A stretch of DNA of 64,000 nt from an uncultured Nitrospiraceae bacterium. GTDB lineage: Bacteria; Nitrospirota; Nitrospiria; Nitrospirales; Nitrospiraceae. Numbering within the stretch: position 1 is the stretch's first letter; every line of letters begins with the position of its first letter. Both the position numbers and the translations under genes were made by a program. The notes below the pieces were generated by a model. The model was not told where the DNA came from and ran no database searches. It saw nothing but the letters and a program-made list of their open reading frames with translations. Shown piece by piece: positions 12,834-33,083 of this stretch. The DNA lies in contig CAVSTP010000004.1 of the NCBI GenBank assembly GCA_963730935.1, forward strand, positions 384,001 to 448,000, given 5' to 3'.

Positions 12834-12942
12834 CACAGCTCGTCCTCCATTTGCAATCAGCATCGATTGAGATGCCTGATCGTTGGTCCTCGTCACGGGA
12901 AAACCAGCTCTCCAGTGAAGGCCCCGGCGTTTGTCGTACCGG

Positions 12943-14370
12943 CTATTTGGTCTCACTGGGCTTTTCTACTTGCTCTGTTGCCATGCCTTCAGAAGGATCA
13001 AAGGGGCTCGGCTGCACAATTTCCGGCTCTTCCGTCTTACCCTCCTCAACACCGCGGCTCATGACGGCCATGTTGGCCCCGGTAATAGCTCCTGTTGCTG
13101 CAACAAAACCCGACGACACTTGGCAGGTGAATTCACGTGACGTACCGGCCGGGAGCGAACCAAAGAAACTGGCGAGATTGCCGGAAACGGGAAGTGACTG
13201 TACCTGCGAGCCGCTTGACGTGGTGGTTCTCATGGTGAATCCGGTGAGCTGGGGCGGCCCGAATTTTGACGAGGTTTGATTCTTATCGAGGGTACACATG
13301 ACGGTCTGCGTCTGACCGGCTTCGCACAGGGCGCCTTCTTCGACGCCGACGACGTTGAGCGGACCAACGAGGTTCGCGCCGCTCGGATTGAAGCAGGCAA
13401 CCACCATCGTTCCACGCGCGGAGCTGCCACTCCAACGCAGGCGGGTGTTACCCGTCAGTGAGGCATCATTCATCCCCATCTTCTGTAGAATCCAGCCGCG
13501 GAAATTATAGACATCCGTGAACGTGGCTTCACCGGTTGGGGTCTTACAATCGCTGACCGTTCCTTGCGAGGCGATCCCCCGGACCGTTGCGCGTCCATAC
13601 TCTACGGTGACGAAGCCCGATCCACTGTCGCCCTCACACAACGATGCGTTGGCTGCCGCCGCTGTAATGTAGAACTTTGGGGGGAAGCTGTCTGGCCCAA
13701 TAGGAGCTCGGAAAATGGCGAACTGTCCAGCCGGCGTATTGAGATTGTGACTGAAGTTGGCGACGGTTCCCACCACGCCTGCATGGCGCGAATCTCTCGG
13801 CAAGCCGACGGTTTGGATATAGGGGGTGATCGAAAAGGGCTGTGGCAGCTTGATCAGCGCGATGTCGTTGGCCTGATCGCTGGAAGGTGAATACTGCTCA
13901 TGGACGTAAATACCGCCTGAGCCGGAACCTGTCTGGCGAGTCTCTGTTTGACTCTGGTTGGTGTATGGATCGGTACGGGTGTAGGTGACTTTGGCGCCGC
14001 TGATCTGCACGCAATGAGCGGCGGTCAACACCCATCGTGGATCGAGGAGCACGCCTCGGCACGATAATCTCGATTGCACGCTGACGACCCAGGGATATCT
14101 GTAATCGGGTTCGAAAATACCACCGGTGGGCGGCAGCACGATCGGCGTAGGGGCGCTCGGTGCCGGTGGCGGAGCCGTTTTTGACGGCAGCCTACCTGTA
14201 TCAAGCTGGGCGCGGCTCACCGCACGTTCCTGAACTGCGTTGGGGTCGCCAGACGGCGCCGATGACGTCGCCGGATCGCCTGCGCAGCCGCTGACGAGCC
14301 CGGCAATCAAAATCGCTGTTGCCGACAGAGACACCGCTTGCTTTGCCTTCTGACGTTCAGCCGAAATCAT
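12943..14370 (-). CDS. Trypsin-like (S1) serine protease lipoprotein
   Basis: AAGGAGG RBS; LVSGC lipobox; triad LTAAHC, NDIALI, GDSGSG; VQERAV and VMSRGVEEG tags. Confidence 0.9.
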   Translation of the reverse strand: MISAERQKAKQAVSLSATAILIAGLVSGCAGDPATSSAPSGDPNAVQERAVSRAQLDTGRLPSKTAPPPAPSAPTPIVLPPTGGIFEPDYRYPWVVSVQSRLSCRGVLLDPRWVLTAAHCVQISGAKVTYTRTDPYTNQSQTETRQTGSGSGGIYVHEQYSPSSDQANDIALIKLPQPFSITPYIQTVGLPRDSRHAGVVGTVANFSHNLNTPAGQFAIFRAPIGPDSFPPKFYITAAAANASLCEGDSGSGFVTVEYGRATVRGIASQGTVSDCKTPTGEATFTDVYNFRGWILQKMGMNDASLTGNTRLRWSGSSARGTMVVACFNPSGANLVGPLNVVGVEEGALCEAGQTQTVMCTLDKNQTSSKFGPPQLTGFTMRTTTSSGSQVQSLPVSGNLASFFGSLPAGTSREFTCQVSSGFVAATGAITGANMAVMSRGVEEGKTEEPEIVQPSPFDPSEGMATEQVEKPSETK

Positions 14371-14454
14371 AAGAACCTCCTTCTTCGAGACACATAAGAA
14401 CGATTTGTCAGCGTCAGATTCACACCGTGTGATGAAGCTGACCAGCAAGAGCAC

Positions 14455-15045
14455 TCACTGCTTTCCTGAAATAGTTCCTTTCGGGTACGAGCAGGTGCCG
14501 GTACATGTATCACCGTCCCCTTTGTGACATGTAGAGGTCTTTCCGTCTTTGGACGTGACCGAGCAGCTTCCTTGTCCGCCATCGCATGAACAGCTCATCA
14601 TCACGTTGCCAGGCTGTGATGCCAGTGCGGCTGACTCATCCCCCTGGCCAGAAGGTGTTTGGGTCTCGCCCTCAACCCCTCGGCTCATGACCGAAAGGTT
14701 GGTGTTTGGAATCGTACTGAGCATCGCCCTGGTCCCACCAGGTTTGTAGGCTCCACAATACTTAGTTGTCCCAGATATCGTGGCGCCATTTTCGTCTGTG
14801 CCCGTACATGGTCGATTGTTATACATTCCACAAGCGACCCCTGCACTGTTCCTAATGTCGAGGATCGTTCCAAAACCAGACGCAGGTGTGTAACAGGCAC
14901 AGGCACATTCGTTGTAAATCGGGTCCTTAGGTTTGGCGTAAGTGACGTCCGGCGCGACGATGGTCAATCCCACTCCGACTCCGACCGTCAATACCAGAAA
15001 GAATCTCAAAACCCCCTGGCTGCCATGTTGCGTTCTAAGTAACAT
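14455..15045 (-). CDS. Secreted protein with two 6-Cys domains separated by VMSRGVEGE linker
   Basis: AAGGAGG RBS; signal peptide; 12 Cys in two clusters. Confidence 0.8.
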   Translation of the reverse strand: MLLRTQHGSQGVLRFFLVLTVGVGVGLTIVAPDVTYAKPKDPIYNECACACYTPASGFGTILDIRNSAGVACGMYNNRPCTGTDENGATISGTTKYCGAYKPGGTRAMLSTIPNTNLSVMSRGVEGETQTPSGQGDESAALASQPGNVMMSCSCDGGQGSCSVTSKDGKTSTCHKGDGDTCTGTCSYPKGTISGKQ

Positions 15046-15121
15046 GATGATCCTCCTTCATCGAAAGGTTGCAGCGTGACGCATCTCTCTCGCTGTGGCA
15101 ACTCACTTACCTTCAAGCTCG

Positions 15122-15137
15122 TGCATTTGATCTGCCA
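15122..15137 (-). promoter_or_regulatory. Putative sigma54 (-24/-12) promoter upstream of 14455..15045
   Basis: Minus strand TGGCAGATCAAATGCA has GG and GC separated by 10 nt, about 77 nt upstream of the ATG. Confidence 0.45.
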
Positions 15138-15151
15138 ATCCTCAACCTCGA

Positions 15152-15238
15152 TCAGAATTGATCCAACGTCATCAGCGTGCCGATGATGCGGTAGTTAATG
15201 CGCCCTTTGCACCCACGGTATCGACCTGTGACTTCACT
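15152..15238 (-). pseudogene. Orphan 3' fragment of the 16585/17632/26624 paralogue family
   Basis: Translates ..GCKGRINYRIIGTLMTLDQF*, matching GCQAEITYTIIRALMPFDQF* of 17632..18663. Confidence 0.7.
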
Positions 15239-16467
15239 CATCGAAGAACCGGCGGTGACGCCAAGCCATACACCACCAATTGAAACTTTTCATTTGCTGT
15301 CGCAGCTCCGTCTCTGCGGGTCGTGAGCAACATGTAGCCATTCGGATCCTTGAAAATGCCGACAAAGAAGCCGCTCGAGGTTTGAATGGCATACGTGCAA
15401 TTTCCCTGATCGATGACTCGGAATTTCTCCCAGGCTTTGACCTGCGTCGCATCGGTATGGAAAACCGTGGTGAAACCGCCGATGCAAGCGCTGAAGAGCC
15501 CACAATCCGGGGGAAGGTATTTCTGAACCTGCCCGCCGCCGCCAGTGGCCGTCACGTAATTCCTGCCGTTCGCTGTCTGAAGCGCATACGTACCGTCCCC
15601 TTGATTGATAAATTTGAACTTCGTCTCCATGGTCGTCGGATTACTCAGCAAGATGGCTTCAGTCGTCTGCCCCCCACTACTCCGGGCCCAGAAGAACCCG
15701 CCGTTGGCTGCCATGACGCCATACTCCTGTCCCGATTCCAAGTCGCCGCATTTCACGATCCTGAACTGTTCCCAGGCTTTGATTTGAGTGGCATCCGTAT
15801 GGATCGCATCCTGATATTTTCCGCCACCCCCGACGGCTGTCAGATAATTGCTCTTTATAGTCTGTATGCCATAGTAGGCAGGGACCGCGGGTATGCCGAC
15901 CCCTAGATCGAGGAGGCGGAATCGTTCCCAGTCTTTGGCCTGCGTCGCATCCGTATGAAGGACGTTCGCGGTCATCCCGCCGCCATTCACCGCAGTGACA
16001 AAGTTTCCGGTGGGCGCCGTTTGCACCGTCTTGTCGTGCGGCGAGGGAGGCGTTGCAATGGCCAATTTGAATTTTTCCCAGGGACCCGCAGATGTGGCGC
16101 TGGTAATGACGGTCGGATCTCCGCTCCGTCCGCCGCCGTTGATTGCCGTGAGGTAGTAGCCTTTCTGAGTCCGAAATGCGAATTCGCCCGGGTAGGCGCT
16201 TGCGGCAGGGGTGACAAGAACACCCTGCACGGCCATGCCGGAGGCAAGTGCACCTGGTGCAATCTTACTCACTCCACGCTCTTGCACTTCACCGGACAAT
16301 TCGGAAGGTTGCGACTCCTGACGTGCCGAGGGTTCGGCTGGAATCACGGGAACTTCCATGACGGACAGATCTGCGCGCTCAGCCGGAGCTTGCTCCGTCG
16401 TCGTACAGCCGTTCGTGAAGAAACACAAACCGATCAGGAGCAGCGGCGTGAGTATCCTGGCTTTCAT
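15238..16467 (-). CDS. Lipoprotein with fascin-like beta-trefoil repeats
   Basis: FTNGC lipobox; EVQERGV tag; repeated T..G.(Y/F)(L/V)TA..GGG....HTDATQ..(A/D)WE.F units. Confidence 0.82.
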   Translation of the reverse strand: MKARILTPLLLIGLCFFTNGCTTTEQAPAERADLSVMEVPVIPAEPSARQESQPSELSGEVQERGVSKIAPGALASGMAVQGVLVTPAASAYPGEFAFRTQKGYYLTAINGGGRSGDPTVITSATSAGPWEKFKLAIATPPSPHDKTVQTAPTGNFVTAVNGGGMTANVLHTDATQAKDWERFRLLDLGVGIPAVPAYYGIQTIKSNYLTAVGGGGKYQDAIHTDATQIKAWEQFRIVKCGDLESGQEYGVMAANGGFFWARSSGGQTTEAILLSNPTTMETKFKFINQGDGTYALQTANGRNYVTATGGGGQVQKYLPPDCGLFSACIGGFTTVFHTDATQVKAWEKFRVIDQGNCTYAIQTSSGFFVGIFKDPNGYMLLTTRRDGAATANEKFQLVVYGLASPPVLR

Positions 16468-16584
16468 GGGAAGTCCCTCCCTCAAAGGCAGCGCCTCATT
16501 TCTCAGGATCACTTGTTCACCAAAGGTTCCTGGAACATTTCTATTTTCCATCACATGGTCCATCTGCTCGGAATGAGAAAATAC

Positions 16585-17583
16585 TCAGAGCAGGGTGAGC
16601 ACGATCCGATAGGTGACTCTCGCTTTACAAAATTTGTCGTAATCTTCATACACGATATAGTTGAAATCTTTGATCGGTGGTGGAGTGAGCTTTTTGGTCA
16701 ACGTGATCCCATTAGGTGTAAATTGACCTATAGGATCTTTCTCGTTGAACCTCATGCCAGGCTCGAACAAATTTGCGAGGCCAATATTGCGAGCGGACCA
16801 TCCGAACTCCGCGATTTCTCGCGTCTGTCCGCCACTTAGCTTAAACTCTTTCATATGATCTCGTCCGTCAGGTGAGGCCCAATATAAATGGATGTCACTT
16901 TTTCCCACCGTATCGCAGTCGGCATACAAAAAGAATTTGAGAGGTGTGACAGTGACATTGAACCTCGGTGTCATGGTGAATTGAGTACTAAACGTGAAGG
17001 ACTTCCCGTTCGGAATGAGTTCCCGAAGGGCGATATCGAGGCGCATGAGCCTGGACAGCCCGTCTCTCAAGTCATCCGCGTACCGAACTTGTATACCGGT
17101 CGTGGGTTTGTAGGTCTCTGTCAGGCGCTGTCCGGAGGTGCTGTAGGCGACGCTGATCTCGACCGGAACTGTGAGGGCTGGATTTTCGGGCACTCGGAGG
17201 TCGACCGTGTTGGTTGCGGGGAAGGATACCTGAATCGCGTTGGCGACGAAATTGAGGGTGGGCGTGGGAGCAGTGTAACTCGGGAGACGGATGAAGCTGC
17301 CTCCCTGGATCGCTCCCGACGAGAGCTTCGGCGGTAGTAGTCCCCGTTCCTGAATGTCGCCAGCCTCCGCCGACGGAGCGGGCTCTTCGGGTATCGTAGC
17401 CGCCGCACCAGGCGATGCCGGTTCCTGAGCACCGGTTGCTGTGCCGATCTCAACCCCGGTGCCAGTGGCGGATGGACTTTCGAGCGTCGGCTGATCCGCC
17501 AGCAACCGCGGAACGAGCGGCACGCTCACAAGACCACCGGTCAACAGCGCGATTGTTAGTATGGAGATCGTGATCGATCGCAT
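16585..17583 (-). CDS. Secreted protein, paralogue family A (copy 1)
   Basis: GGAGGGAG RBS; MRSITISI signal peptide; EAGDIQERGL tag; co-linear with 17632..18663. Confidence 0.8.
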   Translation of the reverse strand: MRSITISILTIALLTGGLVSVPLVPRLLADQPTLESPSATGTGVEIGTATGAQEPASPGAAATIPEEPAPSAEAGDIQERGLLPPKLSSGAIQGGSFIRLPSYTAPTPTLNFVANAIQVSFPATNTVDLRVPENPALTVPVEISVAYSTSGQRLTETYKPTTGIQVRYADDLRDGLSRLMRLDIALRELIPNGKSFTFSTQFTMTPRFNVTVTPLKFFLYADCDTVGKSDIHLYWASPDGRDHMKEFKLSGGQTREIAEFGWSARNIGLANLFEPGMRFNEKDPIGQFTPNGITLTKKLTPPPIKDFNYIVYEDYDKFCKARVTYRIVLTLL

Positions 17584-17631
17584 GGTGTTCTCCCTCCGCA
17601 CGAATCGGCGCGCCGCCATCTCAACCGCCGC

Positions 17632-18663
17632 TCAGAATTGATCAAACGGCATCAGTGCGCGGATGATCGTGTATGTAATCTCCGCCTGACACCCCCCGCC
17701 GGATTTGCTTGGCTGCCCGGGCGGCCCTGCCGTCTCCTCCTTCAAGAAAAAATGATGTTTGGTAGTCGGTCCCGGCACCAACGGTCTGCCTGACCTACCG
17801 AGAGGGGGGGTGTATTCCCCGAAGTCACGCTCGTCAAAGAACACAGACGGTTCCTGGAGTTTGTCCCGCGTAGTGATCTCCTTGCGGGTCCAAGAAAATT
17901 GTGTGATCCCTTTTGCCTCGCCCTGACCGAGTTTGAACTTTTGCTCATGGAATTGACCATCAGGCGAATGCCACTTGAAGGTGATGTCACCTTTCCCAAC
18001 GGTATCGCATCGGTTAACCATGACGAATCTCAAATCCGTGACAAAGACGTCATAGAGCGGGGTGATCGTGAACTCCTTGTTGATCCCGAATCCTTGCCCA
18101 TTGGGGACCAGTTCCCTCACAGTAATAACGAGCTTCATCGGCCGTGGGTCCCCGTTCCCTTCAGCGTCGCGGTACGAGAGGGTCAGGCCGCTGGTGGAAC
18201 TATAGGTTCCTTTCTGGATCTGTGATCGGAACGGAGAGCTATAGAAGACTTCGACCTCGACGGGCACTGTCACCGGCAGGTTCGGGGGAATGCGGAGGTT
18301 CACGGAGATGCTCTTCGACGTGATCCGCATCGCGTTTCGGATCGCGCTTAAACTTAGTGTCGGCGCGCTAAATTGAGTTGGTGAGTTAGGTTGAAGGTTG
18401 GGCGCCACTTGCCCAGGCAGGACCCCCCGTTCCTGAATGTCGCCAGCCTCCGCCGACGGAGCGGGCTCTTCGGGTATCGCGGTAGGCGCACCAGGCGATG
18501 CCGGTTCTTGCGCGCCAACCGCTGTGCCGACCTCGTCTCCGGTGCCGGTGGATGGGGTACTCAGGACCGGCGGCTCGTCAGCCAGCGCCCATGTTACCTG
18601 CGGCACACCCAACAGACCGCCGGTCAGCAGAAGCGTTGCTATGGACATAGTGATCGATCGCAT
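17632..18663 (-). CDS. Secreted protein, paralogue family A (copy 2)
   Basis: GAGGAG RBS; MRSITMSI signal peptide; EAGDIQERGV tag; shared VPVE, RELVPNG, CDTVGK.DI...W.SPDG motifs. Confidence 0.8.
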   Translation of the reverse strand: MRSITMSIATLLLTGGLLGVPQVTWALADEPPVLSTPSTGTGDEVGTAVGAQEPASPGAPTAIPEEPAPSAEAGDIQERGVLPGQVAPNLQPNSPTQFSAPTLSLSAIRNAMRITSKSISVNLRIPPNLPVTVPVEVEVFYSSPFRSQIQKGTYSSTSGLTLSYRDAEGNGDPRPMKLVITVRELVPNGQGFGINKEFTITPLYDVFVTDLRFVMVNRCDTVGKGDITFKWHSPDGQFHEQKFKLGQGEAKGITQFSWTRKEITTRDKLQEPSVFFDERDFGEYTPPLGRSGRPLVPGPTTKHHFFLKEETAGPPGQPSKSGGGCQAEITYTIIRALMPFDQF

Positions 18664-18760
18664 GATGGTCTCCTCTGCCTGGGGATACCAAACGGTTCCT
18701 CGAACCGATAGGCCTTGGAACACTCCGAAACCAGTTCCGTGCTGAGCACAACTCCGAGTA

Positions 18761-19171
18761 TCACTTGCCTTCCTTTTCTGAAGGTGTCGACTCCTCGCCT
18801 TCGACGCCACGGCGCTGGATTGGATTATCTGCACCCGCCTTTGGCGTCTGGCTGGTCCTTGGCTGCAGCTGCGGCAGGTTGTTCGATGGCTTGATGGCCG
18901 CCGGCCCCGATGTGCAAGTGCAGACATAGGTGCCGCTCGGGTTGGGATTGCAGTGAATTTGATAACGTTGGTCGCAGCCGCTTCTGCATTTCGCGTCGGA
19001 CGGAGGGCAGCTCTGAATGCATGCGTTGTGCAGACCTTCGCACTTCTTGATCTCAGCATCGTTGTTTGGCACCGCGGCAACTTCCAAACTCGTCGCCATG
19101 ACGAAGCCAATGCACAACATCAAACACCACACGGCCAGCGTGACTCTACCCAGCGAACATCTGTTTTTCAT
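18761..19171 (-). CDS. Small secreted Cys-rich protein with IQRRGVEGE...EKEGK tail
   Basis: GGGAGG RBS; signal peptide; 8 Cys in mature domain. Confidence 0.78.
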   Translation of the reverse strand: MKNRCSLGRVTLAVWCLMLCIGFVMATSLEVAAVPNNDAEIKKCEGLHNACIQSCPPSDAKCRSGCDQRYQIHCNPNPSGTYVCTCTSGPAAIKPSNNLPQLQPRTSQTPKAGADNPIQRRGVEGEESTPSEKEGK

Positions 19172-19246
19172 CACGAACCTCCCGGTAGTTGTGGGTGGAC
19201 CATCTGCAGTCAGAACAGTATCTTCCAATCGTCCCTCTGTAATGAG

Positions 19247-19333
19247 TCACGGTTTCTTCTCCGTCTCCGCCGAAGGAATTTCCTCTTCGGCTGGCCGGTC
19301 TTCCACGCCCCGGCGCATGACTGGAGCGTTCAT
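19247..19333 (-). other. 28-codon mini-ORF or remnant consisting only of the C-terminal tag (MNAPVMRRGVEDRPAEEEIPSAETEKKP)
   Basis: Manual translation; matches MNAPIMRRGVEGE of 24594..25055; preceded by GAAGGAAGG of an EKEGK* remnant. Confidence 0.6.
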
Positions 19334-19664
19334 GTCACTTGCCTTCCTTCTCTGAGGATGTCGGCGTCTGCCATCGGACCCTTATCGCCTTGCGGTGGAT
19401 CGTTTCTGTGGAGTCTGTCGACGGGATGAGAGAAAGGGTTCACGGGAGAAGAAAGCGATTCGGAGTAAGGATAAGGAAAAGAGAGTTGAACTGACGGCCT
19501 TGCGCTCACGGACAACCTCCTGGCTGCCAATACGGACGACCGCAGTTGCTATTGCTGGGGGAGGAAGAATACGGTAGGGAATCGGCCTAGGTCAACACTT
19601 GTGAGCAGGTCTAAAATGTTTAGCCGGCTTCCTCATGCCGATCCGAGACCTCGAAACAGACTAT

Positions 19665-20366
19665 TTACTTGCGGCTATGTCCTGAAATGAGCGCCCACTT
19701 GAGCAAGCTTCCCAATGCGTACACTCCGTCCTTCCAAGTGATTTTCTTGCCCTCGTCGTAAGTTCGTCCTGTGTAGGTGATCGGGATCTCATACACACGA
19801 TAGCCGTATCGGAATAGCTTGACTGTGATTTCCACCTCGATGTCAAAGCCGTCGGACTTGAGCGCAAGCGCCTTGAGCACGCCGGTGCGAACCATCTTGA
19901 AGCCGGTTTCCATGTCGCTCAAGATACCGGAAGTCATCAGATTGCACATGCCCGTGAGGAAGCGGTTCCCCAGGTAATGCCAAAGGAGGAACGCTCGATG
20001 AGGGCCTATGAACCTGGACCCATACACGGCATCGGCATGCCCTTGCTCAATCAACCGAAGCGCAGCGGGATAGTCTTCGGGATGGTATTCGAGATCGGCA
20101 TCCTGAATCATCACCACATCCCCGCTGACCCGTTCGAGAGCGGTTCTGAGGGCAGCGCCCTTTCCTAGATTTCGGTCATGATAGAGAAGATGTACGGACG
20201 CCGGATACTTGTCTAGGAGTACCTTGACCAGGTGTTGGCTGCCGTCTGTCGATCCGTCATCCACCACGATGACTTCATAAGGGCGCGCGACCGACCACAC
20301 GCGATCAATGACCGCCTTGATGGTCTCGCGCTCATTGTAGAGTGGAATCACCACCGACAGACGCAT
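19665..20366 (-). CDS. Glycosyltransferase family 2 (polyprenol-phosphate glycosyltransferase-like)
   Basis: LSVVIPLYNE, VVDDGSTDGS, NLGKGAAL, QDADLEYHP, YGSRF, DMETGFK motifs. Confidence 0.92.
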   Translation of the reverse strand: MRLSVVIPLYNERETIKAVIDRVWSVARPYEVIVVDDGSTDGSQHLVKVLLDKYPASVHLLYHDRNLGKGAALRTALERVSGDVVMIQDADLEYHPEDYPAALRLIEQGHADAVYGSRFIGPHRAFLLWHYLGNRFLTGMCNLMTSGILSDMETGFKMVRTGVLKALALKSDGFDIEVEITVKLFRYGYRVYEIPITYTGRTYDEGKKITWKDGVYALGSLLKWALISGHSRK

Positions 20367-20447
20367 CTGCTCTGTTCTTCATCCGGAGAACCCAGGCCTT
20401 CTGCTGATTTTAGGCAGGAAGCCTGGGTTGATGATCCCTCCTTCCGG

Positions 20448-21293
20448 TTACTTCTGGTCCTTTCCTTCACTTGGAATTTCCACTTCTTGCGTTGCGCTGG
20501 GATCCGCGCCGGCTTCTTTCTCAACACCCCGTGGCATGATCAATCCTCCCGGCGCAGGGGGAAGAATAAGCTGTCCAGGAAGCTTGCCTGGAATCGGTCC
20601 TCGTTCAGGCGTCTCCACGATCACCTTACGAAGTTGGTCCATACTCTGGCCCCTGAGCATGAAACCGACCCCGCCCTGCGCCGCAGGCTCAACCTTGCTG
20701 TCCGGTCGAATCAGGAGGCGTGTGGTGGGGGAAAGAAGGGAGTGCGTCGCGATCGGTTGTCCCTTCATCTGAACCTGCGGTCCTTCTCGAAGGAACAAGA
20801 GGTATCGCTCACCCGGTCGGTACTGTGGATCATCGTGAATATTGACCGTATTTGCGACGAACGGCACTATTTGCGCCGGCGGGTCAATCCCGTCCTTAGG
20901 TTTGGGCGGAGCGCTTTTCATCGGTGGAGGAGCTTCAAATCCGGCCGGCATACCAAGGGTATGAAACACTTTGATCTCTTGCCCCTGCTCACCTTTCAGC
21001 TTTCCCACTGTGTTGAGGGTCACGACTTCCACGGCAATGTGTATCGCATCGCCCGGTTCACCCGGAGCCTTGATGACAATATCGTCGGCTCGTTCCGCTC
21101 TGACCACCTGTGCTTCAACGATCTGTTGGGCCAGTGCCTTGGCCTCAGCAATGTCTCGAGGATCATACGCCCAGGCGGCAGTCATGAGCGGCGGTCTGTA
21201 CAGATAGGTATTGATCGCGATCTGGGCCAGAAATCCCGCGCCCAGGACGACGATCGCCGCTATTAGAACTCGATTGAGTAGGTGGTATTTCAT
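20448..21293 (-). CDS. Exported/membrane-anchored hypothetical protein with IMPRGVEKE tail
   Basis: AGGAAGG RBS; N-terminal hydrophobic helix; PGERYLLFL motif; follows the metalloprotease gene. Confidence 0.7.
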   Translation of the reverse strand: MKYHLLNRVLIAAIVVLGAGFLAQIAINTYLYRPPLMTAAWAYDPRDIAEAKALAQQIVEAQVVRAERADDIVIKAPGEPGDAIHIAVEVVTLNTVGKLKGEQGQEIKVFHTLGMPAGFEAPPPMKSAPPKPKDGIDPPAQIVPFVANTVNIHDDPQYRPGERYLLFLREGPQVQMKGQPIATHSLLSPTTRLLIRPDSKVEPAAQGGVGFMLRGQSMDQLRKVIVETPERGPIPGKLPGQLILPPAPGGLIMPRGVEKEAGADPSATQEVEIPSEGKDQK

Positions 21294-21350
21294 GGTCCCC
21301 TTCCTCCTTCTTCGTCGCATCAATTGACGCGCAGAGTCCACCGAGCTTGC

Positions 21351-21878
21351 TCAATATTTGGCGTTAATATCCGACCAATTGTGGGGGGACGTGAAATTGG
21401 TGCTCGGGCTGTAATATCCCTTCGCCATGCAATCTCCTGTCGCACTATGGTCTAAACCGAAGGTATGGCCGACTTCCTGACATTGAACTCCTTGCACACC
21501 TTGAGAGGAATAACTGTAATAGGAATTGAAGGTGGCATGAGCGTGAGTGACCCTGCAAAAACACCAGTTGTGCCACCAGTCGAACTCATAGTTGATGATC
21601 GATGCAAGGCCGGCCCATCCGGTCGCGCCGGCGTTTGCACCGTACACGCTCACATCGGTATGAGAGCTGGCGAGCGGCAGGCTGAGGTCAGTATGAGAGT
21701 CCCAATCAGCGATGGCCGCTTTGGATTCATTCTGATGGCTTCCATACACCCACATTCTTATTGTGCTCTTATCCCAGTGCCAGCTCCCCCAGTTATGGGC
21801 CTGTAAAGCCTGAATGTTGACCATGAGCAGGCCTAGGACGATTCCGGCGAGAACGATCGCTTTAGCCCTCGATGTCAT
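21351..21878 (-). CDS. Small secreted matrixin-like (metzincin) metalloprotease
   Basis: Signal peptide; CQEVGHTFGLDH (HExxHxxGxxH with first His as Gln) and DCM Met-turn. Confidence 0.75.
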   Translation of the reverse strand: MTSRAKAIVLAGIVLGLLMVNIQALQAHNWGSWHWDKSTIRMWVYGSHQNESKAAIADWDSHTDLSLPLASSHTDVSVYGANAGATGWAGLASIINYEFDWWHNWCFCRVTHAHATFNSYYSYSSQGVQGVQCQEVGHTFGLDHSATGDCMAKGYYSPSTNFTSPHNWSDINAKY

Positions 21879-22005
21879 GACTGCCTCCCTTCTGTGTATG
21901 CCCAGCGACGCAGCAGATGTTCCGAAATTCTCACTTGATCCCTCGCTTCGCCTAATGATCTCGGCGAGAGCGTCATCTGCTCACCTCCCTCCATGTGACG
22001 GCACG

Positions 22006-22464
22006 TTACTCACCTGCGATCTGGTGGCCCACCACAGGCTCCAACGCGCGGGTGACTTGCGGATTTTTCCCCACGTACAGAACGAGCAGTTTCCCTTTCC
22101 TGAAGAAATGAGGCGGCTCCACCCACCCGATTCGGGTTTCGCCGATCGTTGAGCCATCCGGGGCGATCTTTGCCACCGCGGCCTTGGCTGATTTTTCACT
22201 GTCGTATTCGAACGTTTGGACGTCGCTGCCATCGATACTGACAAATTGACCCGGGACGGACAGAAAAGGTTGGACAACCGGCCCCTTGGCCTCAACCGCA
22301 TGACCGGCTTTTTTCAGATCTTCGATGAATGTCGCGCGAGTCGATTCCGCGCCGGCTTGGCCGCTCTCGGAATCTTGAGATCTCACACACCCGGCCCCAC
22401 TGAGCAGTAGGCTGATGAGAAGCACGTCGCACAAGAACGCGCTGCTCCACATTCGATCAGTCAT
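22006..22464 (-). CDS. Hypothetical lipoprotein
   Basis: GGAGGAAGG RBS; LLLSGAGC lipobox; globular composition. Confidence 0.75.
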   Translation of the reverse strand: MTDRMWSSAFLCDVLLISLLLSGAGCVRSQDSESGQAGAESTRATFIEDLKKAGHAVEAKGPVVQPFLSVPGQFVSIDGSDVQTFEYDSEKSAKAAVAKIAPDGSTIGETRIGWVEPPHFFRKGKLLVLYVGKNPQVTRALEPVVGHQIAGE

Positions 22465-22744
22465 GGCAAGAAAACCTTCCTCCCGGACCAGTCAAGCTAT
22501 GGCCGGGCTCCAGAACAATGGCCTATCAGTGGGTCGTCCGAACGCTCGAAGAGGTTCATAAAATAGAGGCGGGTGTAGGATCTAACAATGCGACGCACGC
22601 TGAGCAGGATTGCAGAGCTGGGAACTACACCATGGGGATCGACCATGATTCGACCACGTCCCTATGAAGAGACCGGTGTGAAGCAGGGGTGGACAGGCTA
22701 CGAATTTCTCCCATATAAGTCAATGCCAATTGAGCCAAAAGGAT

Positions 22745-24436
22745 TCATGGATCTTTAATGGGATCTGAATCGCAGGCTGACGACGGCACGTCGAGACGAT
22801 AGAGCGCGACCGCCTTATCGTCATGGACTAGACGAACGAACCTCTCGAAACCACTGATCGATTCCCTGTGTCTTACCAACCAGCTTTGGTCGATGGCCAG
22901 AGTGGTTACGTGCAGATTTTTGGTCATCAGACAGAGCAAGGGGAGGCTTGGAAACTCACGTGCCATGTCCGCCTGGAAGCGCAGGTAACCAGGCGGGAAA
23001 AAGCCGGAATATCCATTGATAAGCGGTTTGTTGTGATCGATCTGTGCAAAAAGCCGCCAGGCCTCAATCTCATAGTGGGAGACGTGCCGGCCGCTGGGGA
23101 ATGGGATGTGGGCTACTATCGCGGCCTCTTGCCTAGACTTGAGCCATGCAGTCCACTCTGTGCGGGGAGTCGCCGGTATTTGGACCAGAGGAGCAGGAAC
23201 CGCCATGTTTTCCACAGCGGCCAGGATTCCCAGCGTCATGGCTAATACCATTCCGGCAGAGCGAAGAGGCCATTCCTTTAGCCGAGCCAGAGCCACAGGG
23301 GCCAGCAAGCAAAGACCAAGCTGGGTAAACAGCGCGAATCGGAAGGGGCTCCGCAATTGGCTGAAGCCCGGTATTAGGTTTTTCAGGGTCCAAAATGGGT
23401 GCCATCCGCCGATGCTGACATTAAGGCCCAGAGCAAGAACACTGGACCCGATGATCATCGCTCCGAAAAGAAGGACCCAGGGCCGCTGCTCCGCATGTTG
23501 AAGGGCGAGGCTGAATCCCCAGGCGGCCAGCAGTAGGACGAAAAGGCCGGGAAAGAGCCCGGCCGTATCCCCATCCGTTGACTCTCGTGGAGGAATCGAG
23601 AGAGAAGCGGTGGCCGGCCTAGTAAAAAAATCAGACGGTTTCGCTGAAAGCGCCGCGACGACGTCGAAGGGACGTTCGAATTCCAGGGAGCTGTGGAATG
23701 ATAGAATCTGCGTCGCTAGCGGGGCAATGAGAGCCACCCAGAGCAGGGCGGCCAGGACCAATTTGCCGACCGCGCGGCGATCGTCACGGAGCAGCCATAC
23801 GGTCATCAGACCCGCCCCGGCGACCCAAGGAGCACCGAGTAATGCCAGCTGTTGGGAGGTGAGAAACTGCGCAACGTATCCGGCGCACGCCCACAGCGCG
23901 TGACCGAGCCGACGAGTCTGGGAGAATCTCACGAGGCCCTCGAAGGTCCACAGAGCCCCAAAGACAGGAAGCATGGGAAGCACCCCGAGAACTTTCGCGA
24001 TGAAGGGCAGCGTAACAATGAAGAGCCCGCCGAGGGCGGCTGCAAACGGCGGAAGGTGCAAGGCGCGAAGCAGACGATAGGCAAACCACCCGTTGAGCGT
24101 CAGAATCAGAAGCAGAGCACAGTTATAGGCAAGCGCGGGCGGGAAGCCGAGGGCCCATAAGGGCGAGACCATGAGGCCCGTCAGCGGCTGGGGCTCGGAA
24201 TAGGTAAAAACTCCCTCGTTCGGATAAAAGATGGGAGCATTCCAGTACGAGCTGAAGCCGTGGCTTACTCGGTCTGATGTCCACCAGAGGATCCAAAGAT
24301 TGAACAGCGGAACCGTAGCCTCCCGCTCAGTCCCGAGCGGGATGGCTAAAGACATATGGAAGACCAGAGGCCAAGTTGCCGCGATCGCGCCGAGGAGGCA
24401 GAGAGCCGGCGCCACGAAGACTCCTTGATCTCTCAC
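22745..24436 (-). CDS. Polytopic membrane protein, GT-C/YfhO-like putative glycosyltransferase
   Basis: About 11-12 hydrophobic segments; LWILWW, WNAPIFYP, YSE, LRSPFRF, INGYSGFFP motifs. Confidence 0.7.
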   Translation of the reverse strand: MRDQGVFVAPALCLLGAIAATWPLVFHMSLAIPLGTEREATVPLFNLWILWWTSDRVSHGFSSYWNAPIFYPNEGVFTYSEPQPLTGLMVSPLWALGFPPALAYNCALLLILTLNGWFAYRLLRALHLPPFAAALGGLFIVTLPFIAKVLGVLPMLPVFGALWTFEGLVRFSQTRRLGHALWACAGYVAQFLTSQQLALLGAPWVAGAGLMTVWLLRDDRRAVGKLVLAALLWVALIAPLATQILSFHSSLEFERPFDVVAALSAKPSDFFTRPATASLSIPPRESTDGDTAGLFPGLFVLLLAAWGFSLALQHAEQRPWVLLFGAMIIGSSVLALGLNVSIGGWHPFWTLKNLIPGFSQLRSPFRFALFTQLGLCLLAPVALARLKEWPLRSAGMVLAMTLGILAAVENMAVPAPLVQIPATPRTEWTAWLKSRQEAAIVAHIPFPSGRHVSHYEIEAWRLFAQIDHNKPLINGYSGFFPPGYLRFQADMAREFPSLPLLCLMTKNLHVTTLAIDQSWLVRHRESISGFERFVRLVHDDKAVALYRLDVPSSACDSDPIKDP

Positions 24437-24593
24437 TGCGGAGGCTTCAAGTCTTCAATAGGACCAGTGGACGGACTCTGCCAGTTCATTTTGAGTCTCC
24501 TTCGCATTCACTTCGTCACGGGACAGTATCTCCACCTTGTGGCTGAAAACTGATACCCCGTTGGCACACGCCGGTACAGGTACCGGCGCTACA

Positions 24594-25055
24594 CTATTTC
24601 TTTCCCTCGGGTTGTTCATGAGAACCTGATGGAGCCGGTGTGGAATCGGCGGGCTGCTCGCCTTCGACTCCGCGCCGCATGATTGGAGCATTCATCCCGG
24701 CTTTCGGGACAGGGGTTGTTCGCGGAGGAGGATTTGTCGGCGCGACCTGAAGCTGCCCTCCCTGAACTGCGCCTATATTGGCTTTTGGATTCTTGGGAGT
24801 CTGAAAGCTTTCGATCTGCTCACAATCTTTCCCGCCCTCCGCATTAGGGGCGCAGCACATATAGTCTCCGCTACCGTTGCACTCGACCCACTGCCCAGGC
24901 TTGTTCAGACAATGGAAGGCTCCGTCTGGAACACCCCCCTTGCAGTTCTGTGGATTTTTTATGGGTTCCGCTTTAGCCGGTATCGCGTGAACCAGGCATG
25001 CATACATCAGAAACATCGCCACACCGCCGCATCGGATCGAGCTTCTGCTCCTCAT
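24594..25055 (-). CDS. Small secreted Cys-rich protein with IMRRGVEGE tail
   Basis: GAGG RBS; signal peptide ending AKA; 6 Cys; Pro-rich linker and tag. Confidence 0.78.
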   Translation of the reverse strand: MRSRSSIRCGGVAMFLMYACLVHAIPAKAEPIKNPQNCKGGVPDGAFHCLNKPGQWVECNGSGDYMCCAPNAEGGKDCEQIESFQTPKNPKANIGAVQGGQLQVAPTNPPPRTTPVPKAGMNAPIMRRGVEGEQPADSTPAPSGSHEQPEGKK

Positions 25056-25101
25056 TGCGCACCGTCCTCTCTGGCCTTTGGCCTGTTAAGATCCTCGTTT
25101 G

Positions 25102-25515
25102 TCACTTGCCTTCCTTCTCTGAAGACGTCGGCTGCTCACTCTCGACTCCGCGATGCTGCAGGACCGGCGCGTCCGCCTTAGGGACAACAGAGGGACGGGT
25201 CTTGCCTAATTGAGGCTTTTGTTCGAAACAACCACTATTGCAGCCGACGGGTCCCTGCGAGGGAACACACCCGTGCACTGCGCTAAATACACACATTCCC
25301 GCTGGGCTGGTACACACGCATACAGGTGACTCTCCAGGAGCTGCCCCTTGTCGAATGGCACGCTCTTGCACGTCTCCGGATACCGGCGGTGATTGCTCCG
25401 GGGAAGCCACAGGCGACGATTCGTCTGCCGCTTGAGCAAATGAAGATCCGGTCATCAAGAGAACGAAGGCAAAAGAAGCCAGCACATATGGTCTCTTCCT
25501 ACCCAGTGAAGGCAT
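25102..25515 (-). CDS. Small secreted 6-Cys protein with both N-type (DVQERAI) and C-type (QHRGVESE...EKEGK) tags
   Basis: AAGGAG RBS; signal peptide ending SFA; CVC..C..C..CNSGC. Confidence 0.78.
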   Translation of the reverse strand: MPSLGRKRPYVLASFAFVLLMTGSSFAQAADESSPVASPEQSPPVSGDVQERAIRQGAAPGESPVCVCTSPAGMCVFSAVHGCVPSQGPVGCNSGCFEQKPQLGKTRPSVVPKADAPVLQHRGVESEQPTSSEKEGK

Positions 25516-25574
25516 CTCCGACTCCTTTCGCGATGATGTCCTTCCAACTACGGCAATCCTTGAAACCTGTGGTG

Positions 25575-26036
25575 TCACTTGCCTTCTTTCTCTGAAGAAG
25601 TGGGCTGCTCACCCTCAACGCCTCGGGGCATGACGGTCCCAGCGCTTGGAGCCATCGGAGCGCGTTGAAACTTACTCGGTGGTACGCCCGGTGACACAGG
25701 AGCCTGCTGCAGGACCCCGCCGGTCGGAGGAACAACGGTCCCCGACTGAGGTCCCTTCATTGCGGCCGGCTTGCAGTCCCTCACATTCGAGTAGCTCGTC
25801 TTTTCGTAACATTTCCCAGCAGGAGGCAGACCACCCTCGCACTCATCGTATTTGCAGTAGTCGGCGGTGCACTTCATGGCTTTGCCGGTACCTTCTTCTG
25901 TACCGTTTACGGTGGTGGTGCCGGATGACTTGCATGTCTGACCAGCCGGACCTTTCGGCACGGCCAGGGCAATGTCTGGCATCCCAATCACTGCCGCGAG
26001 CAATCCGATGACCCAAATCCGTCTCCGATCAGTCAT
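25575..26036 (-). CDS. Small secreted Cys-rich protein with VMPRGVEGE...EKEGK tail
   Basis: AAGGAGG RBS; signal peptide ending ALA; 6 Cys. Confidence 0.78.
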   Translation of the reverse strand: MTDRRRIWVIGLLAAVIGMPDIALAVPKGPAGQTCKSSGTTTVNGTEEGTGKAMKCTADYCKYDECEGGLPPAGKCYEKTSYSNVRDCKPAAMKGPQSGTVVPPTGGVLQQAPVSPGVPPSKFQRAPMAPSAGTVMPRGVEGEQPTSSEKEGK

Positions 26037-26231
26037 GGGCAGGTCCTCCTTAACGTCCTTCCGAGTGGAGTCACGGTTTCTTGTCTGTTTCCTCCGACGG
26101 AATTCCCGGTTCGTCGGGCCGGTCATCCAGCCAAAATAAGGGGAACGGATCAGCAGCGCTGCTGCCCGCTATTGTTCTGCTCGTTACTCTCCGCCAAAAG
26201 CGGGCCGTCGGTCGGCCTGTCTCTTTCTTCT

Positions 26232-27202: not shown

Positions 27203-27241
27203 AAAGTCTCCTCCACGCTGCGCCACTGGAGACAGTTCATG

Positions 27242-27764
27242 TTAACGTCCCCTGGGAGGGCCTCCCTTACTCGGCGGACCGCTGCTCCATTCGCATTTGC
27301 CGTTACAAGGACCCTGCGGATACTTGCGACAGATTGCGACGTCGTCTTTGGACACAACCATGCACATCCCCGTTCCACTAGTACACCCGCAGGTCATGAC
27401 CGTCTCATTTGTGACCGCACCACCGGCTTTTCGCTTTGCCGTCATTTGGTTATTCGCACCCTTTTCTAACAAGTACCCCGGCGAGGCCCTGAGTTGATCC
27501 CCCTGCACGATGAATCCTTGAGGCGGCACGCCGCGTTCCTGCACGTCTCCCGATGAGGCATACTGCAATTCTGCCTCTGTTGCACCGTACGGTCCTATCG
27601 GATCGCGGAAGCCGCCGCGCGATTGAATTTCCGTCCGGTTCTCCTGTTGGGCGCTCTTCGATGGTGCCAACGGATGATTTCGAGGGCTCAGGCGTTTCAC
27701 CGAAGGCTGAACCAAGTAGGAGTAGCCATATCAATGCAACGCTCACGGGGATTGGGCTCATCAT
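27242..27764 (-). pseudogene. Secreted 6-Cys-domain protein with a +1 frameshift near 27632 (pseudogene or sequencing error)
   Basis: AAAGGAG RBS and signal peptide in one frame; EIQSRG, DVQERGV and Cys domain in another; removing one G at 27631-27632 joins them as GEPDEIQSRG. Confidence 0.7.
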
Positions 27765-27946: not shown

Positions 27947-28325
27947 TTACTGAGCCCTTAGGCAACTACACTCGACGCCGCTCGTCGTGTCGCAGACCGC
28001 ACTGCTCCCGCAGACACTTGAGGAAAACATGTTCTCACAACGGCGTCGCCTCGACAGGTGCAGGAAGATGTTCAGGAAAAATGCATATGCCGCCTTTGGG
28101 CGGGAGCGGAGTGCGTGGTCCCTGATATCGTGGGACTTTCATAAAGCCCGACTTTTGCATAGGCTTGGTCTGCATTGACAGGCCGCGAACCTGCATCGAT
28201 TGGTCAGACGAAGGCGGCGGAGCGGTCGGGTCGTCCGCCCATACCGAGGCAGTCCCGTTAATCAGAAGAGCCATCGTAAATACAGCGAAACCAAATACTC
28301 CAATGTTCATCTCGGAACGTTTCAT
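27947..28325 (-). pseudogene. Secreted Cys-rich protein with probable double frameshift near 28040-28065
   Basis: GGGAGG RBS, signal peptide, MQVRGL tag; alternative frames give CTCRGDA then CENMFSSSVCGSSAVCDTTSGVECSCLRAQ*. Confidence 0.55.
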
Positions 28326-28436
28326 ACATCCCTCCCGTGGGTTTCATAAAAGTTGCTGACTGGTTGTTCCAAGAGATGATATTTCTCCCTATTCTCCGAT
28401 GATGGGTCGGCGACACATTAGCCGGTGTTACTTTCT

Positions 28437-29190
28437 TCAACTCGCTCGCGCAATCAGCTCTTTCAGTCCCTTTAGATCCAGGCGCTCCTGGTTGCAGTTC
28501 GGTTCCGACTATGAATCCCGGTGTGCCGTTGATGCCGAGCTCCTTGGCCAGCGCGCGATTACGATCGATGACCATCTGCCACTCCGAGTTCGCCATGTCG
28601 GCTTCGAGTCGTTTGGTGTCAAGCCCGACCTCGGTCGCGACGCGCAGCACTTCTTCCTTTGTCATCTCGTTCTTGCTGGCGAGCAGCGCTTCATGAAACT
28701 GTTGATGTTTGCCTTGTGCGCGCGACGCCAGAGCGGCTTTCGCGGCAAGTTCGGAGGGCTCGCCGAGAATCGGGAAATCCTTATAGACGACGCGCACTCT
28801 CGAGTCTTCTTTTTGCAGCTGCGTCACGGCTGGTGCTGCTCTCTTGCAGAATCCGCAGCGGTAGTCGAAAAACTCGACGAGAGTGACCTCGCCGTCGGGA
28901 TTCCCGCTTACCGGCGAGCTTGGATCGCGAAGCAGGTCTTGCTGCCGTTTGCCGATGGCCGCCTTCTGCCGCGCCTTTTCCTCCGCCTCCCGCTTAGTCT
29001 CAAGTGCCTGCAGAGATTGCTCGATCACTTCAGGGTGCGAGCGGATGTACTGCTCGATGGCACGTTCCAGTTCCGGTGTGAGCTTCGAGTCAGTCACTGT
29101 CGGTTCGGCCCATACATTGGATGGACTCAGCAGGCATATTGCCGCACAACCTGCAGCTAGTAACCCGCAACCACCTGAGGAAGAGATCAT
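28437..29190 (-). CDS. DsbA-family thiol-disulfide oxidoreductase with a +1 frameshift near the 3' end
   Basis: VEFFDYRCGFCK, YKDFPILG, LGINGTPGF; deleting one base at 28481-28482 gives the natural-looking end PGALDLKGLKELIARAS*. Confidence 0.88.
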
Positions 29191-31358: not shown

Positions 31359-31988
31359 TTATTTCCCTCCCGTACGCACTCCATCCGCCCAACTCCGTGC
31401 CGCCTTGGCATCCGTGGGAGCCGGTTTCGTGCATTTCTTCCCCCGCACTCCATAGCTGATGGTCTCTGTCTTGATCGGGCAGGTGCCGAAGGGGGTGCCG
31501 AATTGGACGACTCCCTCAATGACGGTCAGAATGCTTTGCCCGTCGTTCTGCACCTTCAAATTGAACTCAGTTTCCTTTACAGATGCGGTTGCCACAGGCG
31601 TTTCCACTTCAAACCGCTTGGGTCCGCCGGCGGTTTTTGCCCACACCTCGCCCTGCGATAGTCGGAGAATCCGTGTCATGGGCTTGCCCTTTTCCCATCG
31701 AGAGATCAGCTTGAACGTGGTGCTTTCGTTCAAGGCGACCTGAATGCCTTCCTGAAACTCGATGAGGGCCTGGCTGCTCTCATCCGTCTTGAGCACGTCG
31801 CCCTCGTACAATGGCACATTGCCCTTTCCTTGAAGACGTTGCTGCACGCCGTCGGTTCGAACGATCGTCAGCGTACCGATCGCATTGGTCGCTGCACCGA
31901 GGGGAGTATTCTGGGCGATGGCAGTGCCGGTTACCGCAACGCAAAAGGTCATCAGAGCTGCGATGATGTTCCATGGATTCGATGTCAT
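31359..31988 (-). CDS. Secreted FecR-domain protein
   Basis: AAGGAG RBS; signal peptide; LYEGDVLKT..SQALIEF, LRLSQGEVW, FEVETPVATASVKETEF, LTVIEGVV. Confidence 0.85.
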   Translation of the reverse strand: MTSNPWNIIAALMTFCVAVTGTAIAQNTPLGAATNAIGTLTIVRTDGVQQRLQGKGNVPLYEGDVLKTDESSQALIEFQEGIQVALNESTTFKLISRWEKGKPMTRILRLSQGEVWAKTAGGPKRFEVETPVATASVKETEFNLKVQNDGQSILTVIEGVVQFGTPFGTCPIKTETISYGVRGKKCTKPAPTDAKAARSWADGVRTGGK

Positions 31989-32028
31989 GTGTTTCTCCTT
32001 CACGTTGATGCCGTTGCAAGCGTCTCGC

Positions 32029-33051: not shown

Positions 33052-33083
33052 GATGCCTCCATAAATGGAATGGCCGCCTGAGA

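Follow-up and report, generated by a model that had tools for sequence, protein, structure and literature searches.

The subject of this analysis is a short sequence motif, here termed the C-tag, that recurs near the C termini of predicted exported proteins encoded in a 64,000-nucleotide stretch of DNA from an uncultured Nitrospiraceae bacterium (assembly GCA_963730935.1, contig CAVSTP010000004.1, positions 384,001 to 448,000 of the forward strand; the whole stretch is referred to as the window). The C-tag has the consensus [V/I]-[M/Q]-x-R-G-[V/I]-[E/D] and is usually followed by a short acidic tail. It is proposed, with moderate confidence, to be an Arg-specific endoproteolytic pro-peptide site that would be cut by metacaspase-type enzymes of peptidase family C14 (a WD40-C14 protein, a C14-DUF4384 protein, or both), releasing an acidic pro-piece. 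The scissile bond was placed at Arg-Gly on the basis of the invariance of these two residues together with the specificity of the C14B family, and residues are numbered from that bond (P1 Arg, P1' Gly).

The C-tag and its island

The initial annotation of the window had listed eight C-type motifs, and six-frame translation placed all eight on the minus strand, in open reading frames (ORFs) with low coordinates 12943, 14455, 18761, 19247, 20448, 24594, 25102, and 25575 (Table 1). The distance from the motif to the stop codon is 15 to 36 residues in seven of the eight, while the eighth, in gene 14455-15045, has an internal position with a second Cys-rich domain after it, as had been noted. The description of most tails as short, acidic, and ending in Lys was likewise borne out: six of the seven terminal tails end in Lys and that of 19247 in Lys-Pro, and all are net acidic, the charge having been computed for six and the acidic tail of 19247 having been read from the sequence. 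The two proteins said to have tags of both types (12943-14454 and 25102-25578) do carry both. The listing of VMRRGVED at 19247 was correct for the motif but not for an intact gene, since the ORF (19247-19381) has only 44 residues and lacks both a start region and a signal peptide. Just upstream of it (to about 19400) is the remnant of a second, frameshifted tag. The tail of this ORF is similar to the tails of larger tagged proteins elsewhere (P0079), and for that reason it is read as what is left of the 3' end of a larger gene that has been lost.

The strict pattern [VILM][MQ]xRGVE was searched in all six frames of the whole 4,045,564-base genome. Ten matches were obtained, of which eight fall within 13.2 kb of the island and the remaining two lie deep within large unrelated ORFs. 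As about 0.03 matches are expected per 13.2 kb (Poisson P of about 3e-17), a chance origin of the cluster is excluded. When the eight stretches of DNA were aligned, the codons for Arg, Gly, Val, and Glu of the tag were seen to vary synonymously, and the tag genes have no DNA similarity beyond their stop codons. The synonymous variation, together with a similarity that ends at the stop codon, indicates selection on the peptide and rules out an origin of the tag as a DNA repeat or mobile element.

The loci of ten other genomes were compared with this one, giving eleven Nitrospiraceae genomes and 15 stretches in total (G labels denote genomes, with G000 being the present one, and L labels denote fetched loci). 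These loci hold 50 C-tags, carried by members of 12 multi-member BLAST groups and by ungrouped proteins. In the 44 terminal tags that were aligned, P4 is Ile, Val, or Leu, P1 is Arg, P1' is Gly, P2' is Val or Ile, and P3' is Glu or Asp, each without exception (44/44), and the usual continuation is G/E, E, Q/E, P. The tails are 13 to 36 residues long and rich in Glu, Gly, and Pro, and the longest hydrophobic run in any of the 44 is three residues. They end in Lys (26), Lys-Pro (9), Arg-Pro (2), or other residues (7). The net charge of the tails ranges from 0 to −8 (mean, −3.5), and that of the mature parts is positive throughout (+1 to +20; 49 proteins listed). The carriers include an S1 trypsin-like protease, several small proteins with six or eight Cys residues, and larger lectin-like proteins; the C-tag is attached to many unrelated, net-cationic, mostly Cys-rich domains. 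No Pfam or NCBIfam match was obtained on the tags or tails of any tagged protein.

The family of gene 24594-25055 was aligned at a depth of 48 sequences. The stretch P-K-A-G-M-N-A-P-I-M-R-R-G-V-E-G-E is conserved as well as the Cys domain in this alignment, and 47 of the 48 homologues end in Lys. The AlphaFold2 model of the protein is confident for the signal helix and the Cys domain, with a block-mean predicted local distance difference test (pLDDT) score of 72 to 90 for the latter; the block means for residues 85-153, comprising linker, tag, and tail, are below 57. The tag and tail are predicted from this model to be disordered, which would make the tag an accessible linear site.

A related motif, the N-tag, has the form G-[D/E]-[V/I]-Q-E-R followed by Gly or Ala and then by Val, Leu, or Ile. 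It was found 51 times in the loci of the eleven genomes, with Arg in 51/51. The core common to both tags comprises Val or Ile at P4, the invariant P1 Arg, Gly (or Ala) at P1', and Val, Ile, or Leu at P2'. When written as [VIL][QM]xR[GA][VLI], the shared core gives 86 matches in genome ORFs of at least 100 residues, of which 15 are within the 36 kb island. The profiles of the two tags match the same 18 of 151 Nitrospiraceae genomes, the extra matches of each being single weak ones, and two families carry a C-tag and an N-tag together. The comparison supports the view of a single Arg-centred site of which the C-tag and the N-tag form the two faces. Looser N-tag variants stand behind the signal peptides of three more exported proteins at 5135-9630, with T-T-R, Q-G-R, or S-E-R replacing Q-E-R before Gly, Ser, or Ala, and a protein of G111 has a similar I-T-T-R-A variant. 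From these variants, the tag family is probably wider than the profiles used.

The position of the tag within the protein proved informative. In the family of gene 14455-15045, three of the four members continue after the acidic stretch into an entire second Cys domain, and the fourth has an ordinary tail at this position. Compared by eye, this second domain resembles the N-tagged protein 27242-27715. Internal C-tags with approximately 200 to 250 residues downstream are also present in L023:957-2810 and L032:4281-5678. In three further proteins, L032:10647-11087, L034:10163-10666, and L057:15272-17029, a C-tag, an acidic spacer, and an N-tag follow one another in a single chain. By its layout, the acidic piece is a cassette that has the Arg-Gly site at each boundary with a mature module, which is the arrangement of a cleavable pro-piece or polyprotein spacer. 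The internal and tandem tags are most simply read as sites of polyprotein cleavage. In the protein L057:15272-17029, from G111, a large N-terminal part is separated from about 80 C-terminal residues by an acidic spacer of about 40 residues, with the C-tag and the N-tag on its two sides. The island of G111 is reduced and adjoins the WD40-C14 operon; a single tagged protein of the QER/RG[VIL][ED] type was found in it, making it a natural minimal system.

The profile of the eight island tags matched 21 of the 151 sampled family genomes, with several matches per locus. The profile of 44 tags matched 10 of 401 genomes sampled across the phylum; nine belong to the Nitrospiraceae and the tenth to a sister family within the order. 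When run against 1.84 billion representative proteins, the latter profile gave 25 matches at E ≤ 0.001; four of these are repeat artefacts (P0075, P0092, P0094, and P0095), and the remainder are mostly C-terminal in small proteins. The profile is short and does not define the full range of the tag. No description of the tags was found in the literature on Nitrospira with orthocaspases, caspases and signal peptides, and cysteine-rich secreted propeptides. A pro-piece removed by a protease is a known kind of feature; what is new is a modular motif with two faces, confined to Nitrospirales and linked to exported caspase homologues.

Candidate processing enzymes

Peptidases of family C14, clan CD, are the likely partners of the tags, as judged from their sequences and distribution. 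Strict specificity for Arg or Lys at P1 is ascribed to the C14B metacaspases (PMC12445089; PMC6426788), in keeping with the Arg found in all 44 aligned C-tags and all 51 N-tags. The first candidate is an exported peptidase with WD40, CARDB/Ig, and C14 domains (WD40-C14), whose full-length orthologues were found in 16 of the 18 tag genomes and in 5 others. The gene lies approximately 5 to 12 kb from the tag cluster in 13 genomes, G000 included. One of the five others is G111; on reading, it proved to have a tagged protein situated about 3 kb short of the point where the fetched stretch ends, and the WD40-C14 gene starts past that point. The catalytic domain of WD40-C14 is 81 to 94% identical across genera, and its nearest solved relatives are plant metacaspase-4 and yeast Yca1.

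Orthologues of the second candidate, C14-DUF4384, were found in 17 of the 18 tag genomes and in 11 others, the one tag genome lacking it being 72% complete. The two candidate genes flank the tag island, and both co-occur with the tagged substrates, although the match is imperfect. A signal peptide or lipobox and an intact His/Cys dyad (HxxGHG / DSCxSG) were present in the two C14 proteins of the window, in C14-DUF4384 of G000, and in the members examined from relatives. The C14 enzymes are accordingly predicted to share a compartment with the tagged proteins. A predicted complex of the WD40-C14 catalytic domain with a C-tag segment scored 0.01 against a mark of 0.32, in a calculation without controls, and is evidence neither way.

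C14-DUF4384 adjoins an extracytoplasmic function (ECF) sigma/anti-sigma pair in several genomes. In G000 it lies together with homologues of an ECF sigma factor and of a 327-residue protein at G000:C4:361608-367849, approximately 16 to 22 kb before the window start, and this module is conserved at the far edge of the island in G040, G001, G094, and G011. The module could serve as the regulator of the island. A third C14 protein, the Sel1/coiled-coil lipoprotein at 36453-38939, was rejected as the tag protease because full-length or near-full-length matches were obtained in only 3 of the 18 tag genomes (G000, G077, and G150), with partial matches in G096.

Proposed pro-peptide processing and its alternatives

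In the proposed scheme, the tagged precursors would be exported by Sec, as their predicted signal peptides suggest, and their disulfides would be formed by DsbA. One or both of WD40-C14 and C14-DUF4384 would then hydrolyse the Arg-Gly bond of the disordered site in the periplasm or at the cell surface. With this cut the mature cationic module would be freed of its acidic piece, which may be a tail at the C terminus, a pro-region at the N terminus, or a spacer within the chain. Up to that point, the piece would serve as a pro-peptide that neutralises the module or keeps it soluble. The S1 protease, with its two tags, would itself be a substrate, resembling a zymogen, and possibly a protease of a second tier. 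The tagged proteins have the composition of such precursors, namely, an acidic piece and a basic mature part bounded by a candidate processing site, with acidic spacers between both tags in three proteins; removal of the acidic piece is predicted.

Several points weigh against this scheme. The assignment of Arg-Gly as the scissile bond was deduced from invariance and family specificity. The distributions of the C14 genes are inexact, as C14-DUF4384 is present in 11 and WD40-C14 in 5 genomes with no detected tags, and G150 (99% complete, 180 contigs) has tags and no WD40-C14 match. The residues P1'-P7' (G-V-E-G-E-Q-P) and the Lys or Lys-Pro end are conserved beyond the need of a mere leaving group, from which it follows that the tail may have a function of its own; it may dock on WD40 or propeller proteins, or its charged end may evade tail-specific proteases. 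The assignment of the enzyme is also provisional, as the S1 protease could likewise cut after Arg in the genomes where it is present.

If the S1 protease (12943-14454) were itself the tag protease, it would activate itself at its own N- and C-tags and then mature the other proteins, leaving the C14 enzymes to do something else. Both tags were present in 11/11 orthologues read, the catalytic motifs TAAHC, NDIAL, and GDSGSG are conserved, and orthologues at E ≤ 1e-20 were confined to tag genomes (12 of the 18, and none of the others among the 151). Furthermore, an invariant Glu (G-E-A) is aligned to an Asp in crab collagenase 1azz, which was the best full-length match among solved structures; this Asp we take to be pocket residue 226, at the base of the S1 pocket, conferring specificity for basic residues. 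Despite these features, the S1 protease is thought unlikely to be the processing enzyme. At the same threshold, no orthologue was found in 6 of the 18 tag genomes, including G011 (100% complete, one contig), G075, and G094 (99% complete), each of which has several tags, and this distribution is that of a conserved substrate rather than of a universal enzyme. The canonical VVGG N terminus of the protease lies 35 to 45 residues after the N-tag and has no Arg before it. The AlphaFold2 prediction, made with 11 sequences, had a mean pLDDT of 41.5, too poor to see the position of its own tags relative to the active site. A different proposal is that the tag and tail are never cleaved and serve as a sorting, retention, or docking signal recognised, for example, by WD40 or beta-propeller proteins, an outer-membrane exporter, or the neighbouring phage-tail-like proteins that have signal peptides, or else as a shield against tail-specific proteases. 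Such a role would account for the conservation of the downstream side of the motif and of the Lys, Lys-Pro, and Arg-Pro ends counted above, and the tails of the S1 proteases share an additional motif, QPSPFDP, that favours it. Peptide-binding repeats (WD40 and beta-propeller) are fused to or located beside a C14 peptidase, and the island has as neighbours an Hcp-like and a tube-like protein, bearing a Sec and a Tat signal, respectively. The proposal is nevertheless judged improbable, because the same core occurs in N-proximal positions and between domains, where C-terminal sorting makes no sense, and because whole domains can come after the tag, so that the tail need not form the end of the chain. 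The tag and tail match no known model of a sorting signal, and the invariant Arg-Gly suits a protease site better than a docking motif.

The initial annotation had suggested sortase-like transpeptidation, with chaining or cyclisation of the modules. In this scenario, a C14 enzyme cutting the C-tag would form an acyl-enzyme, and the Gly/Ala-Val/Leu amine left free at an N-tag would then attack it, giving ligated, cyclised, spliced, or surface-anchored products. The leaving tail begins with Gly-Val/Ile (44/44) and thereby resembles the N termini that would follow the N-tags, which are Gly or Ala and then Val, Leu, or Ile (51/51); in the substrates of asparaginyl ligases, the leaving group similarly resembles the incoming N terminus. 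In addition, the two tags always co-occur, two families carry both, and three proteins have the C-tag, spacer, and N-tag in cis. The likeness of the tags, their co-occurrence, and the both-tag proteins are, however, equally expected from one hydrolase with one S1'-S2' pocket. One of the both-tag families is an enzyme with a mature part of approximately 390 residues, for which removal of a pro-piece is the ordinary reading, and where a whole domain comes after an internal tag, the arrangement has the appearance of a polyprotein linker. The island has no conserved genes for building an anchor: those for a GT2 glycosyltransferase and a membrane protein were found only in the island of this genome, and that island lacks the Lnt paralogue of others. 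In the available text of PMC12445089, the account of clan CD describes no C14 transpeptidase and places sortase in clan CL, which is weak evidence as the literature search was not exhaustive. The absence of a hydrophobic segment, a basic end, and a folded C-terminal domain, the Arg at P1, the lack of a C13 match, and a sortase homologue unlinked to the tags all leave transpeptidation, chaining, and cyclisation without support, and they are regarded as very unlikely; the partnership with C14 enzymes and the single Arg-centred site, which belonged to the same interpretation, are supported by the sequence comparison. Were ligation nonetheless to occur, this would be the first family C14 transpeptidase and a sortase-like system lacking a membrane anchor signal. 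Acidic spacers would be excised and domains rejoined by trans or cis splicing, both-tag small proteins would be cyclised, or Cys-rich modules would be chained combinatorially.

Comparison with known signals bears on both cleavage and ligation. The LPXTG, PEP-CTERM, and GlyGly-CTERM signals, recognised by sortase, exosortase, and rhombosortase, respectively, consist of a motif followed by a hydrophobic helix and a basic end. Like the C-tag, they are short conserved motifs near the C termini of many unrelated exported proteins, occurring only in genomes with the partner enzyme. The tails described here differ from them in having no hydrophobic helix (longest run, three residues), no basic end, and a net charge of 0 to −8, and the tag is also found at internal positions. 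Sortase genes share the distribution of their substrates and are usually located close to them. The single sortase (PF04203) match of the genome, G000:C3:164430-164795, is on contig C3, and the island is on C4; across the family, sortase was matched in 55 of 151 genomes, comprising 14 of the 18 tag genomes and 41 others. The sortase homologue of the genome is unlinked to the tags. The presence of a sortase-domain gene in this diderm genome is recorded as an observation in its own right. The signal of the type IX secretion system (T9SS), removed by the PorU sortase, is a folded C-terminal beta-sandwich domain of roughly 80 to 100 residues. Asparaginyl ligases and the glycosylphosphatidylinositol (GPI) transamidase belong to family C13 and act at Asn/Asp or small residues. 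PorU and the C13 enzymes belong to clan CD, as do the present candidates, and remove a C-terminal signal, as is proposed for the candidates. In contrast to the T9SS domain, the tail here comprises 13 to 36 disordered residues with no family match, and in contrast to the C13 signals, P1 is Arg in 44/44. No match to C13 (PF01650) was obtained in the 99.9%-complete genome.

Common ground with the metacaspases and orthocaspases (C14B) lies in the P1 preference already described and in candidate enzymes that have the His/Cys dyad and metacaspase-4 and Yca1 as nearest solved relatives. Metacaspase-4 of Arabidopsis releases the Pep1 peptide from PROPEP1. The enzymes here differ in carrying signal peptides, so that their action, if any, would be outside the cytoplasm, and in having, if the scheme holds, a whole group of substrates that bear an extended modular motif before or after the mature module. 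No comparable set of bacterial orthocaspase substrates was found in the literature searched on orthocaspases and Nitrospira caspases. The precursors of cationic host-defence peptides, such as defensins and apidaecin polyproteins, have anionic pro-pieces and acidic spacers. Their mature parts are likewise cationic, often Cys-rich or Pro-rich, and paired with acidic pieces bounded by basic cleavage sites. The present system differs in being bacterial and periplasmic or secreted, with a long specific motif as its site in place of a dibasic one, and, unlike the named host-defence peptides, its mature modules have no fold match (model of 24594-25055) and no Pfam match. Caspase-like releasing peptidases, clan CD enzymes proposed to free secreted toxin modules, are described for polymorphic toxin systems by Zhang et al. 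2012 (PMC3482391). That paper lists export by Sec and the type II secretion system and by phage-tail-like (PVC) systems, with nitrospirae among the PVC lineages, and places the caspase domain in the same polypeptide, just upstream of the toxin and acting in cis. The peptidases considered here are, in contrast, encoded by separate genes, and their putative substrates share a short recognition tag.

The significance of the Arg-Gly processing site, should it be confirmed as such, lies in the substrates. To our knowledge, the natural substrates of bacterial caspase homologues are essentially unknown. Homologues of caspases are abundant in bacteria, and PMC3501461 reports their highest density from Nitrospirae. 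The present data offer a set of approximately 100 tagged sites in 11 genomes, with an extended two-sided consensus around Arg-Gly and two exported candidate enzymes. If pro-peptide processing holds, these Nitrospira lineages would mature a private arsenal of cationic Cys-rich secreted proteins by means of a two-faced pro-peptide code. This would be a bacterial counterpart of pro-protein convertase logic and would bear on the defence or building of microcolonies by slow-growing nitrifiers.

Tagged genes and neighbouring genes

Table 1. Features of the island and its surroundings (window coordinates unless a contig is named; a vertical stroke in words, "/", separates P1 and P1' in the motifs)
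Feature	Position	Strand	Start of P4 residue	Remarks
VgrG-like gene	2396-4483			
Hcp-like protein with Sec signal peptide	4505-5077			
Gly/Ala-rich protein	8821-9630			weak VgrG-tip match
gp19/tube-like protein with Tat-type signal	9995-11017			
S1 trypsin-like lipoprotein gene	12943-14454	−	13065	C-tag VMSR/GVEEG with 36-residue acidic tail ending ETK at 12943..13065; N-tag at 14218-14235
Internal C-tag VMSR/GVEGE	14665..14691	−	14691	gene 14455-15045, between 6-Cys domain and second Cys-rich domain
Three N-tag-only genes (G[DE][VI]QER/G[VL])	15238-16563, 16585-17619, 17632-18657	−		sequence motif
C-tag IQRR/GVEGE with 15-residue tail ending EGK	18761..18820	−	18820	gene 18761-19228, 8-Cys secreted protein
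C-tag VMRR/GVED with tail ending KKP	19247..19321	−	19321	44-residue ORF 19247-19381
C-tag IMPR/GVEKE with 26-residue tail ending DQK	20448..20540	−	20540	gene 20448-21341, 297 amino acids, no Cys, no Pfam match
C-tag IMRR/GVEGE with 25-residue tail ending GKK	24594..24683	−	24683	gene 24594-25055, 6-Cys domain, disordered linker
C-tag LQHR/GVESE with 15-residue tail ending EGK	25102..25161	−	25161	gene 25102-25578, also N-tag at 25354-25371
C-tag VMPR/GVEGE with 15-residue tail ending EGK	25575..25634	−	25634	gene 25575-26126
Two more N-tag-only genes	26624-27226, 27242-27715	−		sequence motif
DsbA-like thiol-disulfide oxidoreductase	28258..29190	−		most widely shared accessory gene: 12 members in 11/15 stretches, from 11 genomes
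WD40-CARDB/Ig-C14 peptidase, exported	33084-36197	−		candidate tag protease; operon 31359..36197 with FecR-domain protein and beta-propeller lipoprotein
Sel1/coiled-coil C14 lipoprotein	36453..38939	−		poor association with tags
C14-DUF4384 peptidase, exported	G000:C4:361608-363683			about 20 kb upstream of window

The N-tag-only gene 26624-27226 resembles the front of a member of the 16585-17619 family, with its continuation split over other frames (26285-26617 and 26071-26394), and is probably either a frameshifted pseudogene or the product of an assembly error.

Phage-tail and type VI secretion system (T6SS)-like genes adjoin the island at 2396-11017, some of them with export signals. The Gly/Ala-rich (8821-9630) and tube-like (9995-11017) families, groups g14 and g15, adjoin the S1 protease in other genomes as well. 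The identification of 11205-12956 as an NLP-like toxin, suggested by a motif, was unsupported by Pfam, and a relative of this protein matches Vps62.

The tag cluster is interrupted at 19665-24436 by an insert that encodes a GT2 glycosyltransferase, a weakly metzincin-like protein, a small lipoprotein, and a 563-residue multi-pass membrane protein with no Pfam match. None of these genes was found in the loci of the 10 other genomes, and tag-gene remnants lie at the edge of the insert (19229-19400). Owing to this absence, the GT2 glycosyltransferase and the 563-residue membrane protein were rejected as core glycosylation or anchoring partners. Lnt paralogues (LNT_N and CN_hydrolase domains) are present in other islands, at L023:9565-11187 and in L029, L032 (two copies), L034, and L035, where they lie among large C-tagged proteins with tails ending in Lys-Pro. 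They were rejected as partners because they were found in stretches from five other genomes and not in this island, the only match in G000 being a 32%-identical gene elsewhere. As paralogues of apolipoprotein N-acyltransferase, they would be amine-acylating enzymes.

A Foldseek search of the 24594-25055 model against the PDB gave no match at E ≤ 0.001, and for 25575-26126 the ESM Atlas returned only unnamed clusters with scores of 0.83 to 0.85, below the trust level of the tool. All 74 homologues of 24594-25055 are termed hypothetical or are unnamed, and the named source organisms are all Nitrospira or Nitrospiraceae; as none has a functional name, the motif could improve their annotation. Metatranscriptome contigs from one run matched 24799-24977, 25357-25507, and 25530-25679 at an identity of at least 95%. 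They form a small share, and carry-over of DNA is possible, so they give a weak hint of transcription in this part of the island.

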